A DNA stretch of 64,000 bases from an uncultured bacterium. Its GTDB lineage: Bacteria; Joyebacterota; Joyebacteria; Joyebacterales; Joyebacteraceae. Numbering within the stretch: position 1 is the stretch's first letter; each line of letters opens with the position of its first letter. Location of the stretch: positions 13,091 to 77,090 of the forward strand of contig CAZAQL010000001.1 of NCBI GenBank assembly GCA_964487295.1. The letters run 5' to 3'. Positions 2,540-58,728 of the stretch are shown here, one piece after another. A model generated the notes under the pieces. The model did not search any database. It saw nothing but the letters and a program-made list of their open reading frames with translations, and had not been told where the DNA came from. The position numbers and the translations under genes are program-made.

Positions 2540-4168
2540 GTGTACACCGGAAAGATGCTTGAATCGATGAAGCGCCTGGAGGCCACCCGCAACGAGCGGT
2601 TGGGTCAGGAGATCCCGCTTCTCTCCCCCGAGGCCAGGCAGGAGCTGCTCGAGGGGTTCCACCCGGATTTCAAGGACGACGTGTTCCGGACCCTCAAGGT
2701 GGGACCGTCGAAGGGCGACCGGGCGCCGAAGGAGCTGGTCGACGCGTTCGAGGCGTACAGCGCGATCGATCCGGCGAAGTTCGATCTGTCGGATGTCGAC
2801 CGTGATGTGGATGTTCTGATCATCGGCGGCGGCGGCGCGGGCGCCGCGGCCGCGCTGGTGGCGGCGGAGCACGGTGCGGACGTGCTGCTCGCCACGAAGC
2901 TCAGGCTCGGCGATTCGAACACCGTGATGGCGCAGGGCGGCATCCAGGGCGCCGACAAGGCGAACGACTCTCCGGCCATCCACTACCTGGACGTGATGGG
3001 CGGCGGGCGCTACTTCAACGACCCTGATCTCGTCGAGGCGCTCGTCACCGACGCGCCTGATGTCCTGGCCTGGCTCGAGAAGCTCGGCGTGATGTTCGAC
3101 AAGGAAGCCGACGGCACGATGATCTCGATCCACGGCGGCGGCACATCGCGCAAGCGCATGCACGCGGCGCGCGACTACACCGGCGCCGAGATCATGAAGA
3201 CTCTGAAGGACGAGGTGCTCAACCGCGAGATCCCCGTCATGGAGTTCGCCGCGGCCTACGAGCTTCTGACCGACGGCAAGAAGGTCACCGGCGCGATCCT
3301 CTACAACATGGAGACCGAGGGGTACCTGGTCGTCCGCGCCAAGACCGTCATCATCGCCACCGGCGGCAGCGGCAGGCTCCACGTCATGGGCTTTCCGACG
3401 AGCAACCACTACGGCGCCACGGCGGACGGCCTCGTGCTCGGTTACCGCGCGGGCGCTCCGCTCACCTTCATGGACACGATCCAGTACCATCCGACGGGCG
3501 CCGCATACCCCGAGCAGATCCTGGGGCTCCTGGTGACCGAGAAGGTCCGCGGCATCGGCGGGCAGATCGTGAACGATGAAGGCAACCGGTTCATCTACGA
3601 GCTCGAGACGCGCGACGTCGAGGCCGCGGCGATCATCCGCGAGTGTCTCGGCCGCAAGAAGGGCGTCACGACGCCGTCCGGTCAGCCCGCGGTCTGGCTC
3701 GACACGCCGATCATCGACGTGATGCACGGCGAGGGCACGATCAGATCGCGCATCCCGGCGATGTACCGGCAGTACGAACGGTTCGGGATCGACATGACGA
3801 AGGTCCCGATCCTCATCTACCCGACGCAGCACTACCAGAACGGCGGACTCACGATCGACGCGACCGGCGAGACGAAGGTGAAGAACCTCTTCGCAGCCGG
3901 CGAGGTCGCGGGTGGCATCCACGGGCGGAATCGCCTGATGGGCAACTCGCTCCTGGACGTCGTCGTCTACGGCCGGCGCGCCGGAGAGGCGGCGGCCGAG
4001 CGGGCCGCGGGGATGAAGAAGGCCGGGAGGATGACGCTTCAGCATCTCGAGAAGTTCCACAAGGATCTCAAGGCGGCGCGCGTCGGCAAGGGGCGGGTGG
4101 CGCCCGTCCTGCTGCCGGAGTACCGCCGCACGGAGACCGTCGATCACCGTATCGGCGCTCTCGACTAG
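2540..4168 (+). CDS. FAD-dependent oxidoreductase of the SdhA/FrdA flavoprotein family (non-covalent-FAD type)
   Basis: GGGGAGAAAA is a dinucleotide-binding fold. HPTG and HYQNGG are catalytic-domain signatures of the SdhA/FrdA/L-aspartate oxidase family. Ser (SNTVMAQGG) occupies the position of the covalent-FAD histidine of SdhA. GTG start with AGGAGGAGGG upstream. There is an unusual ~85-aa N-terminal extension. Confidence 0.8.
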   Translation: MYTGKMLESMKRLEATRNERLGQEIPLLSPEARQELLEGFHPDFKDDVFRTLKVGPSKGDRAPKELVDAFEAYSAIDPAKFDLSDVDRDVDVLIIGGGGAGAAAALVAAEHGADVLLATKLRLGDSNTVMAQGGIQGADKANDSPAIHYLDVMGGGRYFNDPDLVEALVTDAPDVLAWLEKLGVMFDKEADGTMISIHGGGTSRKRMHAARDYTGAEIMKTLKDEVLNREIPVMEFAAAYELLTDGKKVTGAILYNMETEGYLVVRAKTVIIATGGSGRLHVMGFPTSNHYGATADGLVLGYRAGAPLTFMDTIQYHPTGAAYPEQILGLLVTEKVRGIGGQIVNDEGNRFIYELETRDVEAAAIIRECLGRKKGVTTPSGQPAVWLDTPIIDVMHGEGTIRSRIPAMYRQYERFGIDMTKVPILIYPTQHYQNGGLTIDATGETKVKNLFAAGEVAGGIHGRNRLMGNSLLDVVVYGRRAGEAAAERAAGMKKAGRMTLQHLEKFHKDLKAARVGKGRVAPVLLPEYRRTETVDHRIGALD

Positions 4169-4317
4169 CAGAGACGAATCCGGCCGGGTGTGGCGACTGC
4201 GCCGCCCGCCCGAGCCGGGGCTCTGTCTCGGCGCCGGTCCGGCTCCGCCCGCCGTTGAGACGGCAGTGCGGCCTTCGACGAACGCCGGCTCGACGCCGGC
4301 GAGGGGGTGAGGAAGGG

Positions 4318-4800
4318 ATGAGGGCATTGATCCTGGGGCTCGGAGATCCGGGTCTTGCGGGAGAGCGGGTCGGACTCGAGGTGGCGCGGGAGCTCCATTC
4401 CACGCTGGATGATCCCGAGGTCGACATCATCGAGACGAGGGTCTCGGGAATCGACCTGTTCGAGATCGTCGCCGGGTACGACAAGGTCGTCATCGTCGAC
4501 TGCGTCCGAACGGGCGAGGGCGGTTTCGGGGAACTCTGCCGTCTCGGGCTCGACGACCTCGAGCTGGTTCCGAAACGGAAGGCCGATCACGGCGTGGAGT
4601 ACAGAGCCAAGATAGAGATCGACGGCGTCTCCGACCTGGCCATGCCGGGCGAGATCTCCGTCTATGCCATCGAGGTGACCGACGACGTCGCCGATGGCCC
4701 GGATCTGAAACCTGTCGCGCGCGAGGCGGTTCTCAGGCTCGTCGATGAGATCGCACGCGAGGAGTTCGGCGGCAGGATGCGAGAAAGCGGGTGGTACTGA
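4318..4800 (+). CDS. hydrogenase maturation (C-terminal processing) protease, HycI/HyaD family
   Basis: 160 aa. The N-terminus MRALILGLGDPGLAGERVGLEV matches the conserved LvlGiGN..gDdGvG signature of this protease family. GAGG-like RBS upstream. The longer track ORF 3643..4800 is an antisense read-through of the flavoprotein gene. Confidence 0.7.
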   Translation: MRALILGLGDPGLAGERVGLEVARELHSTLDDPEVDIIETRVSGIDLFEIVAGYDKVVIVDCVRTGEGGFGELCRLGLDDLELVPKRKADHGVEYRAKIEIDGVSDLAMPGEISVYAIEVTDDVADGPDLKPVAREAVLRLVDEIAREEFGGRMRESGWY

Positions 4801-4818
4801 GGCAGAACGCAGCTTCAC

Positions 4819-6192
4819 ATGAAGGAGGGCTTTCCCTTGGCAGAGGAGAAGCGGCTCACGAAGGAAGAACTGGTCAAGAAGGCTGAGAAGCCGAGTCACG
4901 ACGCCATGGTGCTGCACCCGTTCTACGGGGGCAAGTACCAGGTCGTCCCGAAGTGCGTCATCCGCAGCCTGGATGACTTCTCCATCTGGTACACCCCGGG
5001 CGTAGCGGCGCCCTGCAAGGACATCCACGCTCACCCCGAGGCCGTCTACGAGCACACGAACAAGAAGAACACCATCGCCGTCGTGACCGACGGCACGCGC
5101 GTGCTGGGGCTCGGAGACATCGGTCCGCACGCCAGCCTCCCGGTCATGGAGGGCAAGGCTCTCCTTTTCAAGTACCTGGGCGGCGTCGACGCCGTGCCCA
5201 TCGCCGTCGACACGAAGGACCCGGACGTCCTGATCGAGACAACGAAGCTCATCAGCCCCGCGTTCGGGGGGATCAACCTCGAGGACATATCGCAGCCGAA
5301 GTGCTTCCGCGTTCTCGAGGAGGTACGCGCCGCGCTCGACATCCCCGTCTGGCACGACGACCAGCAGGGGACGGCGGCCATCACCGTGGCGGGCGCCATC
5401 AACGCCGTCAAGGTCGTCGGCAAGGAGTTCGACAAGGTCAGGATCGCGATGATCGGCGCGGGAGCGTCCAACGTCCGGATCGCGCACCTTCTGATCAGCG
5501 CGGGCGCCGACCCCGGCAAGATCATCATGTGCGACAGCCGCGGCACGCTCCACGAGGGCAGGAAGAACGACTTCCTGCCGGACTACAAGGAGAAGTGGGA
5601 GCTCGCGCAGCTGACGAACGAGGCGAACCTGGACGGTGACCCGGGCGACGCCTGCAAGGGCGCCGACATGCTCATCGCGCTCTCGAAGCCGGGTCCCGAC
5701 ACGGTCAAGAAGGAGTGGATCGAGGCCATGGCGAAGGACGCCATCGTCTTCGTCTGCGCCAATCCCGTTCCGGAGATCTGGCCGTGGGAGGCGAAGGACG
5801 CGGGAGCCCGGATCGTGGCGACGGGCCGCTCCGACTTCCCGAACCAGGTCAACAACTCCCTCGGATTCCCGGCCATCTTCCGGGGCGCGCTCGACGTCAT
5901 GGCGAAGACCATCACGGACGAGATGTGCATCGCGGCCGCCGAGGAGATCGCGCAGTGCGCCGAGGACAAGGGGCTTCGCGAGGACTACATCGTTCCGGCC
6001 ATGACCGAGTGGGAGACCTTCCCGCGGGAGGCCGTGGCCGTCGGAATGAAGGCTATCGAACAGGGCGTCGCGCGTGTTAGCATCTCGCGCGAGGATCTCT
6101 ACAAGATGGCCGAGGCGAAGATCAGGGAGGCGAGAGAGCAGGCCCACGTTCTTATGAGGGAGGGCCTCATACCTCCTGCGCCGGAGCTCTAG
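4819..6192 (+). CDS. NAD(P)-dependent malic enzyme
   Basis: Strong malic-enzyme signatures: GPHASLPVMEGKALLFKYLGGVDAVPI, NLEDISQPKCF, and an NAD-binding GAGASNV segment. 457 aa. Confidence 0.85.
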   Translation: MKEGFPLAEEKRLTKEELVKKAEKPSHDAMVLHPFYGGKYQVVPKCVIRSLDDFSIWYTPGVAAPCKDIHAHPEAVYEHTNKKNTIAVVTDGTRVLGLGDIGPHASLPVMEGKALLFKYLGGVDAVPIAVDTKDPDVLIETTKLISPAFGGINLEDISQPKCFRVLEEVRAALDIPVWHDDQQGTAAITVAGAINAVKVVGKEFDKVRIAMIGAGASNVRIAHLLISAGADPGKIIMCDSRGTLHEGRKNDFLPDYKEKWELAQLTNEANLDGDPGDACKGADMLIALSKPGPDTVKKEWIEAMAKDAIVFVCANPVPEIWPWEAKDAGARIVATGRSDFPNQVNNSLGFPAIFRGALDVMAKTITDEMCIAAAEEIAQCAEDKGLREDYIVPAMTEWETFPREAVAVGMKAIEQGVARVSISREDLYKMAEAKIREAREQAHVLMREGLIPPAPEL

Positions 6193-6215: not shown

Positions 6216-6243
6216 GCACGGGCGGCCGCCCGGCCGCCCGTGC
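6216..6243 (+). terminator. GC-rich hairpin downstream of malic enzyme (11-bp stem, no U tract)
   Basis: GCACGGGCGGC / GCCGCCCGTGC perfect inverted repeat with a 6-nt loop, 24 nt after the stop. Confidence 0.4.
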
Positions 6244-6266
6244 GGTCTCGGAATCCCGGGTTCCGC

Positions 6267-6866
6267 ATGACTGAAGAGCTGCATCCTACCGACACCGAGC
6301 TCGTGACCGCCGCGAAGAACGGCGACAATGAGGCCTTCGGCCAACTCGTCGAGCGGCACGAGGCGAACGTCTACGGTCTCTGTCTCAAGATGCTCAAGAA
6401 CCCCGAGGACGCCGAGGACTGCCTCCAGGAGGTCTTCGTCAAGGCGTACAAGGCGCTTCCCGGTTTTCGCGAGGAGGCGCGGTTCTCCACCTGGATCTAC
6501 CGGATCGCGACCAATGCCGCCCTCATGCGCATCCGCAAGAAGAAGCTCGATACGGTGTCCCTCGACCAGCCGGTCGAGCTCGGAGAGACGAAGGTCCCGC
6601 GCGAGGTCGCGGACTGGACCACCGATCCCTCGACCAACGTCATGAACGATGAGCTCTCCGCCGTGCTCACTCAGCACATCAACGACCTTCCGCCCAACAA
6701 CAGGATCGTGTTCGTGCTCCGGGACGTGCACGGTCTCTCGACCGACGAGACGGCCGGCGTGCTCGGGCTGACCGCCCCGGCGGTCAAGTCGAGGCTGCAC
6801 CGGGCCAGGCTGTTTTTGCGCGAGCGCCTGTCGGAGTACTACGCTCGTGGAGGGCCCCCCGCGTGA
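6267..6866 (+). CDS. RNA polymerase ECF sigma factor (sigma-70 family, regions 2 and 4)
   Basis: Region 2 (FGQLVERHEANVYGLCLKML..EDCLQEVFVKAY..FSTWIYRIATN) and region 4 (RIVFVLRDVHGLSTDETAGVLGLTAPAVKSRLHRAR). ORF open from GTG 6240; ATG 6267 chosen as start. Confidence 0.8.
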   Translation: MTEELHPTDTELVTAAKNGDNEAFGQLVERHEANVYGLCLKMLKNPEDAEDCLQEVFVKAYKALPGFREEARFSTWIYRIATNAALMRIRKKKLDTVSLDQPVELGETKVPREVADWTTDPSTNVMNDELSAVLTQHINDLPPNNRIVFVLRDVHGLSTDETAGVLGLTAPAVKSRLHRARLFLRERLSEYYARGGPPA

Positions 6867-6943
6867 CACGTGAATCGTTCTGCGCGGTTCTGAATCGAAA
6901 GTGTGTTGCACAATCACTCAATCGGCAGCAAGGAGGACGCAGA

Positions 6944-8884
<1,941 letters not shown>

Positions 8885-8997
8885 GTCAACGAACCAGACG
8901 CGGAGCTTCCACCGCCAGCGATCTAGGGCGCGGTATGCGGGTCGCACCGGACACCCATGAAGCGGTGAAGCCATGCGTCGCAAGCGGGTGAGACACC

Positions 8998-9249
8998 ATG
9001 GACGAGAAGCACGATTGCGAAGGCTGTCTGGAGTTCCTTGAGGTCCTCTCGGAGTACTACGACGGGGAGCTCGACGAGGCGATCGCCACCAGGCTCGAGC
9101 TGCACATGCGAGAGTGCAAGCGGTGCGAGGCGGTCGTGCGGACGTTCAGGCAGACCATCGTGCACTACACGACGACCCGCTGTCGGAAGGTGCCTTCGAA
9201 CGTGCACCAGGGGCTCATGAACGCCCTCAGGAAGTGCATGGAGGAGTAG
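8998..9249 (+). CDS. ZAS-type (zf-HC2) anti-sigma factor, small cytoplasmic
   Basis: 83 aa with the HMRECKRC (H-x3-C-x2-C) zinc motif plus an upstream CEGC. Lies downstream of the ECF sigma gene, with the S9 peptidase between them. Confidence 0.6.
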   Translation: MDEKHDCEGCLEFLEVLSEYYDGELDEAIATRLELHMRECKRCEAVVRTFRQTIVHYTTTRCRKVPSNVHQGLMNALRKCMEE

Positions 9250-9308
9250 CGGGCTCGGCGGCGGTGAGCCGGGCGCCCCGGCCTCACTCCGGCGAAGCAA
9301 TGCGAGAG

Positions 9309-9350
9309 ACGCCCCGCGGGTCCCCGGACCCGCGGGGCGTTGCTTCTTCC
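9309..9350 (+). terminator. intrinsic terminator after anti-sigma gene
   Basis: ACGCCCCGCGGGTC / GACCCGCGGGGCGT 14-bp perfect stem with CCCG loop, followed by TGCTTCTTCC. Flanking AAGCAA/TTGCTT extends the structure. Confidence 0.5.
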
Positions 9351-9546
9351 CCGGCGCGCTGCGCCGCCCGGAGCGAGCCGCTGCGTCCGCCAGGACCCTC
9401 GCGGCGTCGCGTTTTTCCGCGACCGATCTTCGCGATTCGCATCGAAAGGGATGAGCGGTGGATGTCCGGAAGCGCGGGCTCGGCCGCTCTCTGAGCGTGA
9501 GCAGTTGTTCACATCGACCTCAGGACGGAAGGGAGGTGTTGGTTCA

Positions 9547-10002
9547 ATGGAACTCGTCAAATGGAGGCCGAGAAAGGACGTTCTGAGCGTCCACGATGAG
9601 CTCGATCGTGCTATGGATCGGCTCCTCCGGGGCTGGGTGCCCGCCAACTCCTACGCCGGCCTCGACTGGAGCCCGAGCGTCGACATCGCCGAGAGCGACG
9701 ACCGGTTCGTGGTGAAGGCCGAGGTGCCCGGCGTCGACAAGGACGACATCGAGATCAGTCTCGTCGACGGCAACCTCGTCATTCAGGGAGAGAAGAAGCA
9801 GGAGAGTGAGGAAGAGGGCAGGAACTTCTATCGGGTGGAGCGCAGCTACGGCTCGTTCAAGCGCGTCTTCGCCCTGCCCGCCCGCGTCGACATGGACCAG
9901 GTCAAGGCGTCCTACGAGGACGGCGTGCTCTCCGTCGTCATCCCGAAGTCCGGGGAGGCGAAGAGCAAGAAGATCCGGATCGAGAAGCCGGAGAAGGTCT
10001 AG
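9547..10002 (+). CDS. Hsp20/alpha-crystallin family small heat shock protein
   Basis: 151 aa. Alpha-crystallin domain strings: WSPSVDIAESDDRFVVKAEVPGVDKDDIEIS and GVLSVVIPK. GGGAGG RBS before ATG 9547. Confidence 0.85.
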   Translation: MELVKWRPRKDVLSVHDELDRAMDRLLRGWVPANSYAGLDWSPSVDIAESDDRFVVKAEVPGVDKDDIEISLVDGNLVIQGEKKQESEEEGRNFYRVERSYGSFKRVFALPARVDMDQVKASYEDGVLSVVIPKSGEAKSKKIRIEKPEKV

Positions 10003-10085
10003 GCCGAATCCCGGTCCGAGGGCCGGGTGGCGTCCGGCGGTTCGCGTCGGACGTCGGACCCGCCCGAGGACGGTCGACAACTGAG

Positions 10086-10121
10086 AGGGGCGGCCTCGCG
10101 GCCGCCCCTTCCGCTTGTTTG
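10086..10121 (+). terminator. intrinsic terminator after hsp20
   Basis: AGGGGCGGCC / GGCCGCCCCT 10-bp stem with TCGC loop, followed by TCCGCTTGTTTG. Confidence 0.55.
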
Positions 10122-10194
10122 CGCCGCGCTCCGGGGCTAAGATGGTTTCAAGCAGCAGTGTCCGCGATGCGCCCGTCTCACGCAGGAGGTGATC

Positions 10195-11655
10195 ATGCCG
10201 CCAGAGATGAAGCGAGGAGGCAGGCTCGTCGTGATCGGCGGCGACGCCGCGGGGATGAGCGCCGCGAGCCGGGCCAGGAGGCTTCGCCCGGACGTGGAGA
10301 TCGTCGTGCTTGAGCGAGGAGAGATCGTCTCCTACGGCGCCTGTTCGCTGCCGTACTACGTCGCCGGACTGGTGCCGTCCCGCGACGACCTCATCGTTCA
10401 TGATCCCGACTTCTTCCGTCGCGAACGGCATATCGACGTCCGCACCGGGGCCGATGTCGTGGCCGTGCATCCGCGGGAACGGACCGTCCTGTGCAGTACC
10501 GCTCTCGGCGAGGAGTCGTTGACCTACGACGCTCTCGTCATCGCAACAGGCGCGAAGCCCGTGAGGCCGCGGCTCCCGGGCGTCGACCTGCCGGGCGTCT
10601 TCACGCTCAGGTCCGTTCCCGACGGCGACGCCATTCGAGAGCGGCTGCGCTCTCTCGGGGCCCCCGAGCCCTCAGTCACGGGGAGCATCGACGGCACGCT
10701 CGAGGATCCTCCGGCAACGTCGCCTCCTCACGGGACGATCCGCGCGACGGTCGTCGGCGGCGGGTACATCGGACTGGAGATGGCCGAGGCTCTCGTCGCT
10801 CGGGGCGCGCGCGTGACGGTCATCGAACTCCTTCCGCGCGTTCTGTCGACATACGATCCCGACATGAGCGACCTTGTTCTCCGGGAGCTTCTGGACCGAC
10901 AGGTGATCGTACGGACCGGAACGGGCGTCGAGGCGTTCGAGGCCGGCGAGGACGGGAGCGTCGGCTTCGTGCTCGCCGGCGGTCAGAGGCTCGCCACGGA
11001 CATCGCTGTACTCGCCGTCGGCGTGAGGCCGCGCGTCGAGCTGGCCCGCGACGCCGGGATCGAGCTCGGCCGAACGGGCGCGATCGCCGTCGACCCGCGA
11101 CAGGTCACGAGCGAGCCCGCGGTGCTCGCCGCGGGCGACTGCGCCGAGTCGCCTCACATCGTGACGGGCAGATCGGCGTGGATCCCGCTGGGCACGACGG
11201 CGAACAAGCAGGGGCGGCTCGCGGGTGAGAACGCTGTCGGTGGCGATGCGCGTTTCGGAGGCGTCGCCGGGACCAACGTGACGAAGATCTTCGGCCTCGA
11301 GGCGGCGCAGACAGGGCTCTCGACCGAGGCCGCCGAGAACGAGGGCATGGAGCCCGACTCCGTCCGCATCACGGGGGCGACGCGCTCGCATGCGTATCCC
11401 GGCGGCGGCAGGATCACGGTCAAGCTCATCTTCGAGCGCGGCTCCGGCCGGCTGCTCGGAGCGCAGCTCGTCGGGGCGGAGGGCGTCGCCAAGCGCGTGG
11501 ACATCCTCGCGGCGGCGCTCGCCGCGGGCATGCGCGTCCACGACGTCGCGGCGCTCGATCTGAGCTACGCGCCCCCGTTCGCTCCGGTGTGGGATCCCGT
11601 CCTGATCGCGGCGAACCAGGCAGTGAAGAAACACGCGTCGGGACGCGACGAGTAG
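10195..11655 (+). CDS. CoA-disulfide reductase / NADH oxidase family flavoprotein (single redox-active Cys)
   Basis: VIGGDAAG FAD fold. Active-site SYGACSLPYY. Second dinucleotide fold VVGGGYIGLEMAEAL. AGGAGG lies 5 nt before ATG 10195. There is a ~30-aa insert (APEPSVTGSIDGTLEDPPATSPPHGTI). Confidence 0.8.
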   Translation: MPPEMKRGGRLVVIGGDAAGMSAASRARRLRPDVEIVVLERGEIVSYGACSLPYYVAGLVPSRDDLIVHDPDFFRRERHIDVRTGADVVAVHPRERTVLCSTALGEESLTYDALVIATGAKPVRPRLPGVDLPGVFTLRSVPDGDAIRERLRSLGAPEPSVTGSIDGTLEDPPATSPPHGTIRATVVGGGYIGLEMAEALVARGARVTVIELLPRVLSTYDPDMSDLVLRELLDRQVIVRTGTGVEAFEAGEDGSVGFVLAGGQRLATDIAVLAVGVRPRVELARDAGIELGRTGAIAVDPRQVTSEPAVLAAGDCAESPHIVTGRSAWIPLGTTANKQGRLAGENAVGGDARFGGVAGTNVTKIFGLEAAQTGLSTEAAENEGMEPDSVRITGATRSHAYPGGGRITVKLIFERGSGRLLGAQLVGAEGVAKRVDILAAALAAGMRVHDVAALDLSYAPPFAPVWDPVLIAANQAVKKHASGRDE

Positions 11656-57371: not shown

Positions 57372-57528
57372 AGAGGACCGGAGCTTACCAGCGGGCCGGT
57401 CGCCGGGTCAATGCCGCCCGGTGCCGTGGGGAACCGCGCTTCGTGGAGCGCATCTAAATGGATGGTGAATAGCGCCGTGTCGCGGTCGCGTGGCGTCCTC
57501 GCGACGCGTTTCCCTCGCACTGCGCCTG

Positions 57529-57557: not shown

Positions 57558-57681
57558 ACAGTCTGTCAAGAATTTAGCGACCGGTTGCCCCCGCGAACGG
57601 TAGACGGGGGCGTATACCCGTGACGCGGGTGCGCGTCGTGCGGACGACGCGCGCGTCCCGTCGGTGAGGAGTGTGACTCGA

Positions 57682-58728
57682 ATGCGAGGAACGAACAGGC
57701 CAACAAGCGTTCTCATCACGGCGCTTCTCGTACTCGTCGCCATGGCGCTTCCGCTCATCTCCTTCGCGGAGGTGAACCGGGAGGTCTCCCCGGAGGAGCA
57801 GGCGAGGATCGACGCGATCAACGACCGGATCACGGAGATGGGGTACGACTGGGTGGCGGGACCGACGAACGTCTCGCACCTGTCGCCCGAGCAGAAGCGA
57901 AACCGGCTCGGCGGCGAGATCCCGCCGGACATCCTCGCGGAGTTCGAGGCCCTCGAGCCCGATCCTGAGATCCTCCGCATGACGTTCCGCTCGAGTTTCG
58001 ACTGGCGTGACTTCGGCGGCGTCACCCCGGCCAAGGACCAGGCGGACTGCGGCTCATGCTGGGCGTTCGGCGCGGCCGGCGCCACGGAGGCGCACATCCG
58101 GATCGCCGAGGGCGTCATCCTCGACGTCTCCGAGCAGCAGATCATTGACTGCAACGGACAGGGCTCCGACTGCGACGGCGGCTGGGCCGGCGATGCCTAC
58201 GCCGTTCACTACAGCCCCGGCGCCGTGAGCGAGGACGACATCCCCTACGTTGCGGACGACAACCAGAGCTGCCGTGAGCGGCGGTACGACAAGATCGCCA
58301 TCATCGACGGCAGCGCGAACATCTCGAACAACGTCTCCACGCTCAAGTACAACCTCGAGACGTACGGTCCGCTCTCGGTCGGCATGTGCGTCTACGACGA
58401 CTTCTACAACTACACGGGCGGGTGCTACGAGAATCCGGGCACCGACTGGACGAACCACGTGGTTCTGCTCGTCGGCTGGGACGACGCGATGTGCGGGGGC
58501 GAGGGCGCGTGGCTCTGCAAGAACAGCTGGGGGCAGGACTTCGGCGACAACGGCTTCTTCTGGATCAAGTACGGGACCTGTCGCATCGGCACCGGCGCGA
58601 TGCGCCCGGTCAACGCTCACACTCCGAAGACCGTCCTGGTGCCAGACGAGTACGCGTCGATCCAGACCGCGATCGACAACTCGGAGCGCGGCGATGTCAT
58701 CAGGATCGCGGAGGGAACCTACAACTAG
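57682..58728 (+). CDS. secreted papain-like (C1A) cysteine peptidase; N-terminal segment of a gene interrupted by in-frame TAG at 58726-58728
   Basis: GAGGAG RBS 10 nt before ATG 57682. Signal peptide. QADCGSCWAFG active-site Cys. Oxyanion Q upstream. NSWG and WIKYG near the His/Asn region. The reading frame continues beyond the TAG. Confidence 0.75.
   Translation: MRGTNRPTSVLITALLVLVAMALPLISFAEVNREVSPEEQARIDAINDRITEMGYDWVAGPTNVSHLSPEQKRNRLGGEIPPDILAEFEALEPDPEILRMTFRSSFDWRDFGGVTPAKDQADCGSCWAFGAAGATEAHIRIAEGVILDVSEQQIIDCNGQGSDCDGGWAGDAYAVHYSPGAVSEDDIPYVADDNQSCRERRYDKIAIIDGSANISNNVSTLKYNLETYGPLSVGMCVYDDFYNYTGGCYENPGTDWTNHVVLLVGWDDAMCGGEGAWLCKNSWGQDFGDNGFFWIKYGTCRIGTGAMRPVNAHTPKTVLVPDEYASIQTAIDNSERGDVIRIAEGTYN

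Follow-up and report, generated by a model that had tools for sequence, protein, structure and literature searches.

Envelope serine peptidases are known outputs of extracytoplasmic function (ECF) sigma factors and can be encoded in or near the sigma operon, as in the sigmaE-degP system of Escherichia coli and the sigE-rseA-htrA/pepD system of Mycobacterium tuberculosis. These peptidases are S1 (HtrA) proteases, their genes lie after the anti-sigma gene or elsewhere, and the anti-sigma factors of these systems span the membrane. SigW of Bacillus subtilis recognizes promoters of the form TGAAAC-N16-CGTA. Its anti-sigma factor, RsiW, has been reported to be redox-insensitive, and in M. tuberculosis the sigH and rshA genes are parted by an open reading frame (ORF), which provides a precedent for a split sigma/anti-sigma pair (PMC3177212). 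The sigmaE gene of Neisseria meningitidis belongs to a polycistronic operon with other genes and its product targets msrAB, which serves the repair of oxidative damage; no response to oxidants was detected experimentally for this system (PMC2893595). Here, we analysed a locus of an uncultured bacterium, contained in a 64,000-nt stretch of contig CAZAQL010000001.1 (hereafter the window), in which the gene of an S9 serine peptidase lies between those of an ECF sigma factor and a small anti-sigma factor with a zinc-binding anti-sigma (ZAS) motif. At this locus, a switch of a known kind has been rearranged in one lineage, and no new mechanism is involved. We consider it probable that it is the form taken in one clade, Eisenbacteria, by a widespread ECF sigma/ZAS pair, with the peptidase, the anti-sigma factor and the small heat-shock protein (sHsp) Hsp20 placed under the sigma factor's own promoters.

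The window and its close relatives are together labelled Eisenbacteria, loci of other phyla are called the outgroup, and comparison loci and comparison proteins carry L- and P-numbers, respectively. All elements of the locus lie on the plus strand, in the order malic enzyme, hairpin, ECF sigma, S9 peptidase, ZAS protein, hairpin, hsp20, terminator, flavoprotein related to coenzyme A-disulfide reductase (CoADR) and PtsI; the sigma-S9 gap is 77 nt and the S9-ZAS gap 113 nt. The features that concern the switch are the following.

6217-6244, plus strand: GC-rich hairpin lacking a U-tract (GCACGGGCGGCC-GCCC-GGCCGCCCGTGC), read from the sequence, between the stop of the malic enzyme gene and the sigma ATG.
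6267-6866, plus strand: SigW/RpoE-like ECF (group 4) sigma factor of 199 aa, with Pfam regions r2 and r4_2.
6872-6900, plus strand: predicted ECF-type promoter for S9-ZAS, a conserved motif in the same place in 6 relatives.
6944-8884, plus strand: S9 (acylaminoacyl-peptidase/Dpp5-like) serine peptidase, putative lipoprotein, 646 aa (Peptidase_S9, 4e-54).
8998-9249, plus strand: soluble class-I anti-sigma factor with ZAS motif, 83 aa (zf-HC2, 2.5e-7).
9310-9349, plus strand: terminator-like hairpin CGCCCCGCGGGTCC..GGACCCGCGGGGCG followed by TTGCTTCTTC (T-rich tail), the likely end of the (sigma-)S9-ZAS transcript.
9419-9447, plus strand: predicted ECF-type promoter for hsp20, conserved in 5 relatives.
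9547-10002, plus strand: Hsp20/alpha-crystallin small heat-shock protein, 151 aa (HSP20, 6e-28).
10085-10120, plus strand: intrinsic terminator 3' of hsp20, an 11-bp stem followed by CCGCTTGTTT, from a terminator scan.

The five genes from sigma to the CoADR-like gene, which a first-pass annotation had described, are real, and every domain call made there holds with strong profile scores. The gene identities thus stand and the first interpretation holds in part, but three of the starts do not stand, and we place them at ATG 6267 (sigma), ATG 6944 (peptidase) and ATG 10195 (CoADR-like).

The sigma-S9-ZAS order was present in every Eisenbacteria locus with enough sequence (the window, L001-L004, L008-L012, L092-L097 and L111, about 14 distinct loci), and the arrangement is not due to chance; sigma, S9 and ZAS are 72-92%, 67-84% and 37-78% identical to those of the window, respectively. 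The trio usually has the CoADR-like gene and PtsI downstream, but in L095 it is retained though a C25 peptidase gene comes next instead of the CoADR-like gene. More than 120 protein clusters are at least 70% identical to the sigma factor, and several of them carry the name Candidatus Eisenbacteria. Beyond the clade, a scan of one genome per species gave closest sigma relatives of 41-50% identity, from Stahlbacteria, Caldisericaceae, Calditrichia, KSB1, Cytophagia, LCP-89, Zixibacteria, Thermodesulfobacteriota, Rokubacteria and Chloroflexi. At 14 outgroup loci, a protein of 77-94 aa with the HxxxCxxC motif and no membrane segment is encoded 5-68 nt 3' of sigma; 11 of these 14 proteins aligned with the window ZAS protein, with H36, C40, P66 and L73 invariant, and two were found directly from it by tblastn. 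The next tier of sigma matches (34-40%) consisted of Firmicutes SigW genes, followed by the gene of the membrane protein RsiW (about 205 aa).

No S9 gene was found within about 6 kb at any of the 80 non-clade loci. When the test was reversed, 55 of 58 metagenomic loci with an S9 homologue (29-73% identity) had no sigma or ZAS neighbour, and such neighbours occurred only at the three loci with at least 82% identity. Because the outgroup pairs are adjacent without S9 and the 55 S9 homologues stand alone, the sigma-ZAS pair is ancestral and the S9 gene was inserted in Eisenbacteria. The earlier statement that such an anti-sigma gene normally follows its sigma gene directly is borne out by the 14 adjacent outgroup pairs, and the insertion is genuine and specific to Eisenbacteria. 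Two further Eisenbacteria loci, L014 and L018, have sigma paralogues (48% identity) that are accompanied by neither ZAS nor S9, and they are uninformative on the timing of the insertion. The main text of the ECF classification (PMC7826278) does not mention S9 or Hsp20.

The sigma factor contains Sigma70_r2 (4e-21) and Sigma70_r4_2 (1e-14) and scored 116 bits with TIGR02937 (cutoff 43), as expected of an ECF (group 4) sigma factor. Its best NCBIfam matches were PRK11922 (179 bits) and SigW (147 bits), with RpoE at 112 bits, and the nearest solved structure is that of B. subtilis SigW (5wuq, 5e-31); among the PDB matches, SigW reached 111 bits and SigH 65. The SigH_actino model (TIGR02947) gave 79.7 bits against a cutoff of 251.6, which places the protein outside the ECF12 SigR/SigH group. 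Profiles and PDB matches alike indicate a SigW/RpoE/AlgU-like rather than a SigR/SigH-like protein, so that the SigR-type regulon invoked in the first-pass annotation gets no support from the sigma factor. The start was assigned to ATG 6267 because GTG 6240, where the first-pass annotation had placed it, falls within the hairpin upstream and because the orthologue gene calls are 199-209 aa in every case.

The 83-aa protein scored 31 bits with zf-HC2 (cutoff 22) and carries H36-x3-C40-x2-C43 (HMRECKRC) together with C7, C10, C62 and C80; besides the HxxxCxxC motif it thus has the upstream Cys of ZAS proteins, C10, which aligned to RsrA C11. No hydrophobic segment was found in it (the maximal Kyte-Doolittle value was about 0.5 in the 73%-identical L012 orthologue). 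As the first reading had it, the protein is a soluble class-I zf-HC2 anti-sigma factor with a complete ZAS motif. The adjacency of its homologues to the orthologous sigma gene in the 14 outgroup loci marks it as the probable cognate partner of the sigma factor encoded upstream, with zinc and sigma binding as predicted properties. Some of its relatives (P0127 and P0130-P0136) are proteins of 300-2500 aa in which zf-HC2 domains are repeated in tandem, 2-9 per protein.

The inserted gene encodes a member of family S9 (Peptidase_S9, PF00326, 184 bits) whose nearest solved structure is the aminoacyl peptidase 5l8s (7e-57). The canonical motifs, read without a structural alignment, give a triad of Ser493 (GAS493YGG, of the form GxSxGG), Asp578 and His610, and the N-terminal beta-propeller yielded faint Tricorn_N and TolB matches. 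The start codon is preceded by AAGGAGGA. A lipobox, MFEKRRIVATALLAVLLTTAVLAVS-C26 (LAVSC26), was recognized by motif, without a dedicated predictor, and its ..SCG is kept in 10 of 10 orthologues. Its earlier description as a secreted S9 peptidase of 647 aa is therefore right as to the family, but the protein has 646 aa and is probably a lipoprotein rather than simply secreted. We infer that the peptidase is an output of the regulon, like DegP or HtrA in other ECF regulons, and not a regulator, because it would be extracytoplasmic while the anti-sigma factor has no membrane segment. Its position between sigma and anti-sigma might instead be taken to mean that it acts in the signalling path, modulating sigma in the manner of a site-1 protease or a CseA-like lipoprotein, and there is a precedent in lipoprotein modulators whose genes neighbour that of an ECF sigma factor (sigE-cseA of Streptomyces). 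This is very improbable: an anti-sigma factor with neither a membrane segment nor an extracytoplasmic domain is out of reach of a periplasmic lipoprotein, and the sigma-ZAS family does without any S9 in all other phyla sampled.

What ties the peptidase to the pair is a promoter-like motif. The candidate for S9-ZAS consists of a -35 element GAATCG (6872-6877), a 16-nt spacer and a -10 element ATCGAAA (6894-6900), and it stands 6 nt 3' of the sigma stop and 43 nt 5' of the S9 ATG. The motif GAATCG-N16-ATCGAAA occupies the same position before S9 in seven loci (the window, L001, L012, L095, L096, L097 and L111). The candidate for hsp20 (-35 GCGACC, N16, -10 ATCGAAA) lies about 100 nt 5' of the ATG, and the element G(C/A)A(A/T)C(C/G)-N16-(C)ATCNAAA recurs before hsp20 in six loci (the window, L009, L010, L011, L092 and L094), in spacers that are otherwise dissimilar among relatives. 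An A-rich extension (ATCNAAA) marks the second half-site in every case and is absent from the first, as expected of a -10 and a -35 element. A position weight matrix (PWM) ranked 6872-6900 highest in the window, but this is one of its training sites.

The outgroup provided an independent test. The PWM, trained on Eisenbacteria sites only, was scanned over 177 kb of outgroup loci; its two best matches, in L030 (22.4) and L027 (20.2), both lay upstream of a thioredoxin-sigma-ZAS operon (p about 0.01 for this result alone), and a further match lay directly upstream of the L016 sigma gene. With a looser regular expression over 355 kb of outgroup sequence, both strands counted, there were 20 matches; 12 of them were on the strand of a sigma-ZAS pair and no more than 1.2 kb away from it, against an expectation of about 2 (binomial 1e-7, an optimistic value, since some outgroup sites were already known when the expression was refined). 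Altogether, the motif recurs with orthologous sigma-ZAS pairs in at least six other phyla. It precedes thioredoxin genes in L017, L023, L027 and L030, OsmC genes in L020, L021, L025 and L026, genes for a TlpA-like thioredoxin and a DUF1858-like protein in L022 (identified from ORF translations only), and the sigma gene itself in L019, L023 and L024. Thus, GAATCG-N16-ATCGAAA is very probably, as far as motif prediction goes, the cognate promoter of this sigma family, in which case S9-ZAS and hsp20 would be direct sigma targets. In L027 (5357-5632) and L030 (5310-5585), the ECF-type motif is separated from thioredoxin by a small membrane-protein ORF with an in-frame TGA; this ORF is conserved in frame beyond the TGA (…GV(K/P)T-TGA-MS(S/G)AC(E/G)PEDRA) and may encode a selenocysteine-containing redox protein.

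A SigR-type promoter, GGAAT-N18-GTT, was sought by eye, without a pattern search, and was seen upstream of no gene here; a GGAAT does occur 12 nt 5' of the sigma ATG, but a correctly spaced GTT is missing, likewise by eye. In place of the shared GGAAT..GTT-like promoter that the first-pass annotation proposed to look for, the common motif is GAATCG-N16-ATCGAAA. A generic scan for sigma-70 promoters and terminators returned no promoters and two terminators only, neither of which separates S9 from sigma or ZAS from S9 in the window. A hairpin follows ZAS in most loci, with ones analogous to that of the window in L001, L009, L011 and L095, and in L012 and L095 only about 30-36 nt separate S9 from ZAS. 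The absence of a terminator between the genes, the short gap in these two loci and the hairpin after ZAS make it most likely that S9 and ZAS form one transcript. The same T-tailed hairpin on one side and the intrinsic terminator on the other agree with the description of hsp20 as terminator-flanked. An S9 gene with its own promoter and terminator had been named in advance as an observation that would speak against its link to the pair; an own promoter is indeed apparent, but no terminator precedes ZAS, and since this promoter is of the sigma factor's cognate type and would drive S9 and ZAS together, the peptidase is tied to the pair and not separated from it.

The following course of events is proposed. 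In the resting cell, the ZAS anti-sigma factor would keep sigma inactive in the cytoplasm. Stress would free sigma, the likeliest signal in the window's subclade being oxidation of the zinc-thiolate site formed by C10, H36, C40 and C43, and the freed sigma factor would activate promoters of the GAATCG-N16-ATCGAAA type. The one 6 nt past the sigma stop would drive S9 and the anti-sigma gene as a single transcript ending at the hairpin 9310-9349, giving both an envelope peptidase as output and negative feedback through additional anti-sigma factor, and a second such promoter would drive hsp20. The lipoprotein peptidase may then deal with damaged proteins of the envelope and the sHsp with those of the cytoplasm, until newly made anti-sigma factor ends the response. 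The CoADR-like gene would be transcribed from its own housekeeping-type promoter.

Several points weigh against this proposal, in addition to the optimistic outgroup probability given above. The promoters are motif predictions throughout. The motif before S9 is confined to the window's subclade, the sigma-S9 gaps of the other Eisenbacteria (12-82 nt) having none, and the degenerate motif occurred three times across the window where 3.25 were expected; given this chance-level count, the support for the motif rests on its position and conservation. For the sigma gene itself, no promoter was found, nor was an ECF-type autoregulatory motif upstream of it in 10 Eisenbacteria loci. The region from the Hdr/Flp/FAD genes upstream of the locus through PtsI and a TPR-SLT gene is collinear across Eisenbacteria, and gene order alone is therefore weak evidence of a functional linkage. 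As to the signal, HMRECKRCEA of the window protein compared with HFEECSPCLE of RsrA has one of the four redox determinants (E39, E40, L45 and E46) in common (PMC3177212), and the equivalent of C43 is Ala (HxxxCxxA) in L008-L011, L092-L094, P0128 and P0129, so that a thiol signal is weakly supported across the ZAS orthologous group as a whole.

The spacer 5' of the Eisenbacteria sigma gene is only 27-74 nt long and has a hairpin inside. In other phyla, a sigma-70-type promoter precedes the orthologous sigma gene in L016, L019-L022, L025, L026 and L029 (for example, TTGACA-N17-TAGTAT in L019), either alongside the ECF-type motif or in place of it. From these outgroup promoters, the housekeeping sigma factor may supply basal sigma expression.

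If the collinearity and the chance-level motif count are given more weight, S9 could be a mere passenger, inserted by chance and inherited within a phylum-wide syntenic block, and the motif could be the site of another regulator, for instance one that binds direct repeats, or the promoter of another sigma factor; the half-sites of the S9 copies do resemble a 22-nt direct repeat of GAATCG. We regard this as rather unlikely. The trio persists in L095 despite the broken downstream synteny, the A-rich extension on the second half-site only is in the style of a -10 against a -35 element, the motif follows orthologous sigma-ZAS pairs into at least six other phyla, and the sigma-S9 spacing is tight (12-50 nt) in the clades that lack the motif. 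A promoter of the sigma factor's own type before S9 and ZAS remains the interpretation we prefer.

For the input of the switch, the gene neighbourhoods in other phyla favour thiol or peroxide stress: by Pfam, the outgroup neighbours are thioredoxin, Pyr_redox_2 and OsmC proteins, with a TrxB-like gene in L019. The ZAS protein itself scored 30.9 bits with the RsrA equivalog (TIGR03988, cutoff 62.5), below the level of membership, and its sole PDB match was RsrA (E=0.41). The determinants of RsrA were defined in actinomycetes only, so their poor match lowers the claim of membership and does not exclude redox sensing. The C43 equivalent is retained only in the window, L001, L005, L012 and L095, and the L009 orthologue has two Cys in total; this loss of the second ZAS Cys from most Eisenbacteria orthologues makes RsrA-like redox sensing plausible for the window's subclade only. 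What the first-pass annotation called the hallmark of redox sensing is thus present in the window protein as HxxxCxxC, but the RsrA equivalog score, three of the four determinants and the Cys conservation among orthologues do not go with it. Similarly, its thiol/proteotoxic stress module receives support from the outgroup thioredoxin, TrxB-like, OsmC and TlpA-like neighbours with the motif, but not from a SigR-like sigma factor or from a CoADR target.

The sHsp gene introduces a different candidate for the input. Hsp20 scored 97 bits with PF00011 and has the C-terminal IxI motif (IRI) of sHsps. Its gene is present in six orthologous loci and absent from five (L001, L005, L008, L012 and L093); hsp20 as a sigma target is supported by the predicted ECF-type promoter that it has in common with S9-ZAS, but weakened by these absences. 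In L012 (about 3560-3600), a decayed hsp20-type promoter, GCGACC-N16-ATCGTAAG, remains between ZAS and the CoADR-like gene and there is no hsp20 gene, which suggests a recent loss. In a Candidatus Stahlbacteria locus (L013, 6549-7121), the fifteenth outgroup locus in which a ZAS domain follows sigma, a single ORF of 190 aa directly after sigma has the ZAS domain at its N-terminus and an alpha-crystallin domain at its C-terminus. P0225 is a second ZAS-Hsp20 fusion; the fusions are 177-190 aa and 40% identical over their full length. A literature search for fusions of anti-sigma and alpha-crystallin domains found no paper. These fusions are a Rosetta-stone link that, together with hsp20 as a predicted target, points to a possible proteotoxic input.

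It is thus conceivable, if unlikely, that the switch senses heat or protein damage rather than thiols, with ZAS coupled to unfolding through the sHsp, the two being fused in some lineages and encoded here by separate neighbouring genes, and with S9 and Hsp20 as a protein-quality-control output. The conserved fusion architecture, hsp20 with the family motif in its six loci, the second ZAS Cys gone from most Eisenbacteria orthologues (two Cys only in the L009 protein) and the many redox-insensitive ZAS proteins on record (PMC3177212) would fit such an input. The outgroup neighbours and motif targets are mostly thioredoxin, OsmC, TlpA-like and TrxB-like proteins and not chaperones, however, hsp20 is missing from five orthologous loci, and the window ZAS protein retains all four candidate zinc ligands and two further Cys. 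A search of the hsp20 leader and other spacers against Rfam (ROSE and other thermometers) gave no matches, and the folds showed no advantage over shuffled sequences (z = -0.5 and -0.4). A stronger version, in which the sHsp, or the fused alpha-crystallin domain, is a co-regulator that couples the load of unfolded proteins to sigma release, combined with an unusual feedback design of the window's subclade that has the sigma-dependent promoter only on the anti-sigma gene and the outputs and not on the sigma gene, appears to us doubtful and distinctly speculative. If true, sHsp-mediated sigma release would add a novel kind of input to ECF signalling. Thiol or peroxide stress is the input that we continue to favour.

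The flavoprotein gene beyond hsp20 was assigned to the same module by the first-pass annotation. Its features are as follows.

10115-10143, plus strand: sigma-70-type promoter of the CoADR-like gene, TTGTTT-N17-TAAGAT, conserved in relatives.
10195-11655, plus strand: CoADR/NADH-oxidase-family flavoprotein, 486 aa (Pyr_redox_2, 3e-60).

Besides Pyr_redox_2, the protein has the dimerisation domain Pyr_redox_dim (8e-15) and Cys50 at the active-site position (SYGAC50SLPYY), and it carries an insertion relative to the CoADR models, which matched it in two stretches. It scored below the cutoffs of both the CoADR equivalog TIGR03385 (402 bits, cutoff 579) and PRK09564 (373 bits, cutoff 458), so that no name narrower than CoADR/Nox/Npx family is safe. 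The gene is preceded by TTGnnn-N17/18-TA(A/G)nnn, in many cases with a TG further upstream, in L001, L005, L012, L010, L011, L092 and L094, as determined by regular expression in the window's subclade and by eye in the remaining loci; L009 has a weaker -10, CACCAT. No ECF-type motif was found upstream of the gene. With a conserved sigma-70-type promoter of its own, no motif, and its replacement in L095, the CoADR-like gene drops out as a sharer of the ECF promoter, and its relation to the switch is thematic rather than demonstrated: it encodes a pyridine-nucleotide disulfide oxidoreductase beside a thiol-themed sigma pair, comparable in this to the TrxB-like gene in L019 and to a homologue with the motif in L086. 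In an Oscillochloris metagenome-assembled genome, a PWM match (17.1; L086, 6111-6141, minus strand) stands immediately 5' of the gene of a CoADR homologue that is 49% identical to the window protein and lies 4.4 kb from a sigma-ZAS pair. The L086 homologue is an independent hint that genes of the CoADR type can join the regulon.

Two further features of the window lie outside the switch.

4819-6192, plus strand: malic enzyme gene, with its stop at 6192.
57430-57458, plus strand: third motif copy (GGAACC-N16-ATCTAAA), of ambiguous status, in the spacer 5' of a C1 peptidase gene (57664-58728).

Upstream of sigma, at 2540-6192, the window contains a cluster encoding a CCG-domain (HdrB-like) protein, an HdrA-like protein, FlpD, a ferredoxin, an FAD_binding_2 flavoprotein and a HycI-like protein. 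The Hdr/Flp/FAD cluster is conserved phylum-wide (L001, L008-L011 and L092-L095), and the malic enzyme gene stands between it and sigma in some lineages only; in L001, the only other locus inspected, by eye, for this feature, a hairpin also lies 3' of the malic enzyme stop. The C1 peptidase gene preceded by the third motif copy encodes a secreted papain-family protein and is followed by the gene of a beta-helix protein with a type IX secretion system sorting tail. We leave this copy ambiguous because a near-consensus sigma-70 promoter, TTGAAA-N17-TATACT, stands between it and the C1 gene.

These data outline an uncharacterised multi-phylum family of ECF sigma factors with small soluble ZAS partners, spread over Eisenbacteria, Stahlbacteria, Calditrichia, KSB1, Zixibacteria, LCP-89, Cytophagia and others. 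The predicted cognate promoter and the thiol/peroxide neighbourhood define a testable regulon for phyla without a cultured model. Within the family, one lineage would have been rewired, with an envelope peptidase captured in the pair and a sigma-dependent promoter placed before peptidase and anti-sigma instead of before sigma. The ZAS-sHsp fusions offer a lead toward a possibly new stress input. Practical use is modest: sigma factor, anti-sigma factor and promoter make a candidate orthogonal switch for synthetic biology.

Compared with known systems, the locus most readily recalls SigR-RsrA of Streptomyces coelicolor and SigH-RshA of mycobacteria (ECF12), with which it has in common a small soluble anti-sigma factor with an N-terminal Cys and HxxxCxxC, the association with thiol-redox genes and the expected release by oxidation with feedback. 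It differs from SigR-RsrA in that its sigma factor is not ECF12, its motif is GAATCG-N16-ATCGAAA and not GGAAT-N18-GTT, its anti-sigma factor falls below the RsrA equivalog cutoff with a single one of the four redox determinants, and most orthologues no longer have the second ZAS Cys. The sigma factor itself is closest in solved structure to SigW (5wuq) of the B. subtilis SigW-RsiW system (ECF30), and RsiW also has a ZAS motif; RsiW, however, is a membrane protein of about 205 aa removed by regulated proteolysis, whereas the anti-sigma factor described here has 83 aa and is soluble. From the DegP/HtrA systems the locus is set apart by an S9 lipoprotein encoded between sigma and a cytoplasmic anti-sigma factor. 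The sigmaE-NMB2145 (MseR) system of N. meningitidis likewise combines a non-actinobacterial ECF sigma factor with a small cytoplasmic ZAS anti-sigma factor. There, the anti-sigma gene lies directly 3' of rpoE, the promoter has a different -35 element and a different spacer, of 12-13 nt, and no peptidase or sHsp is involved; its -10 element, CGTCTAAH (PMC2893595), nevertheless resembles the (G)CATCTAAA of the present locus, both being ECF -10 elements of the TCTAA/TCAAA type.

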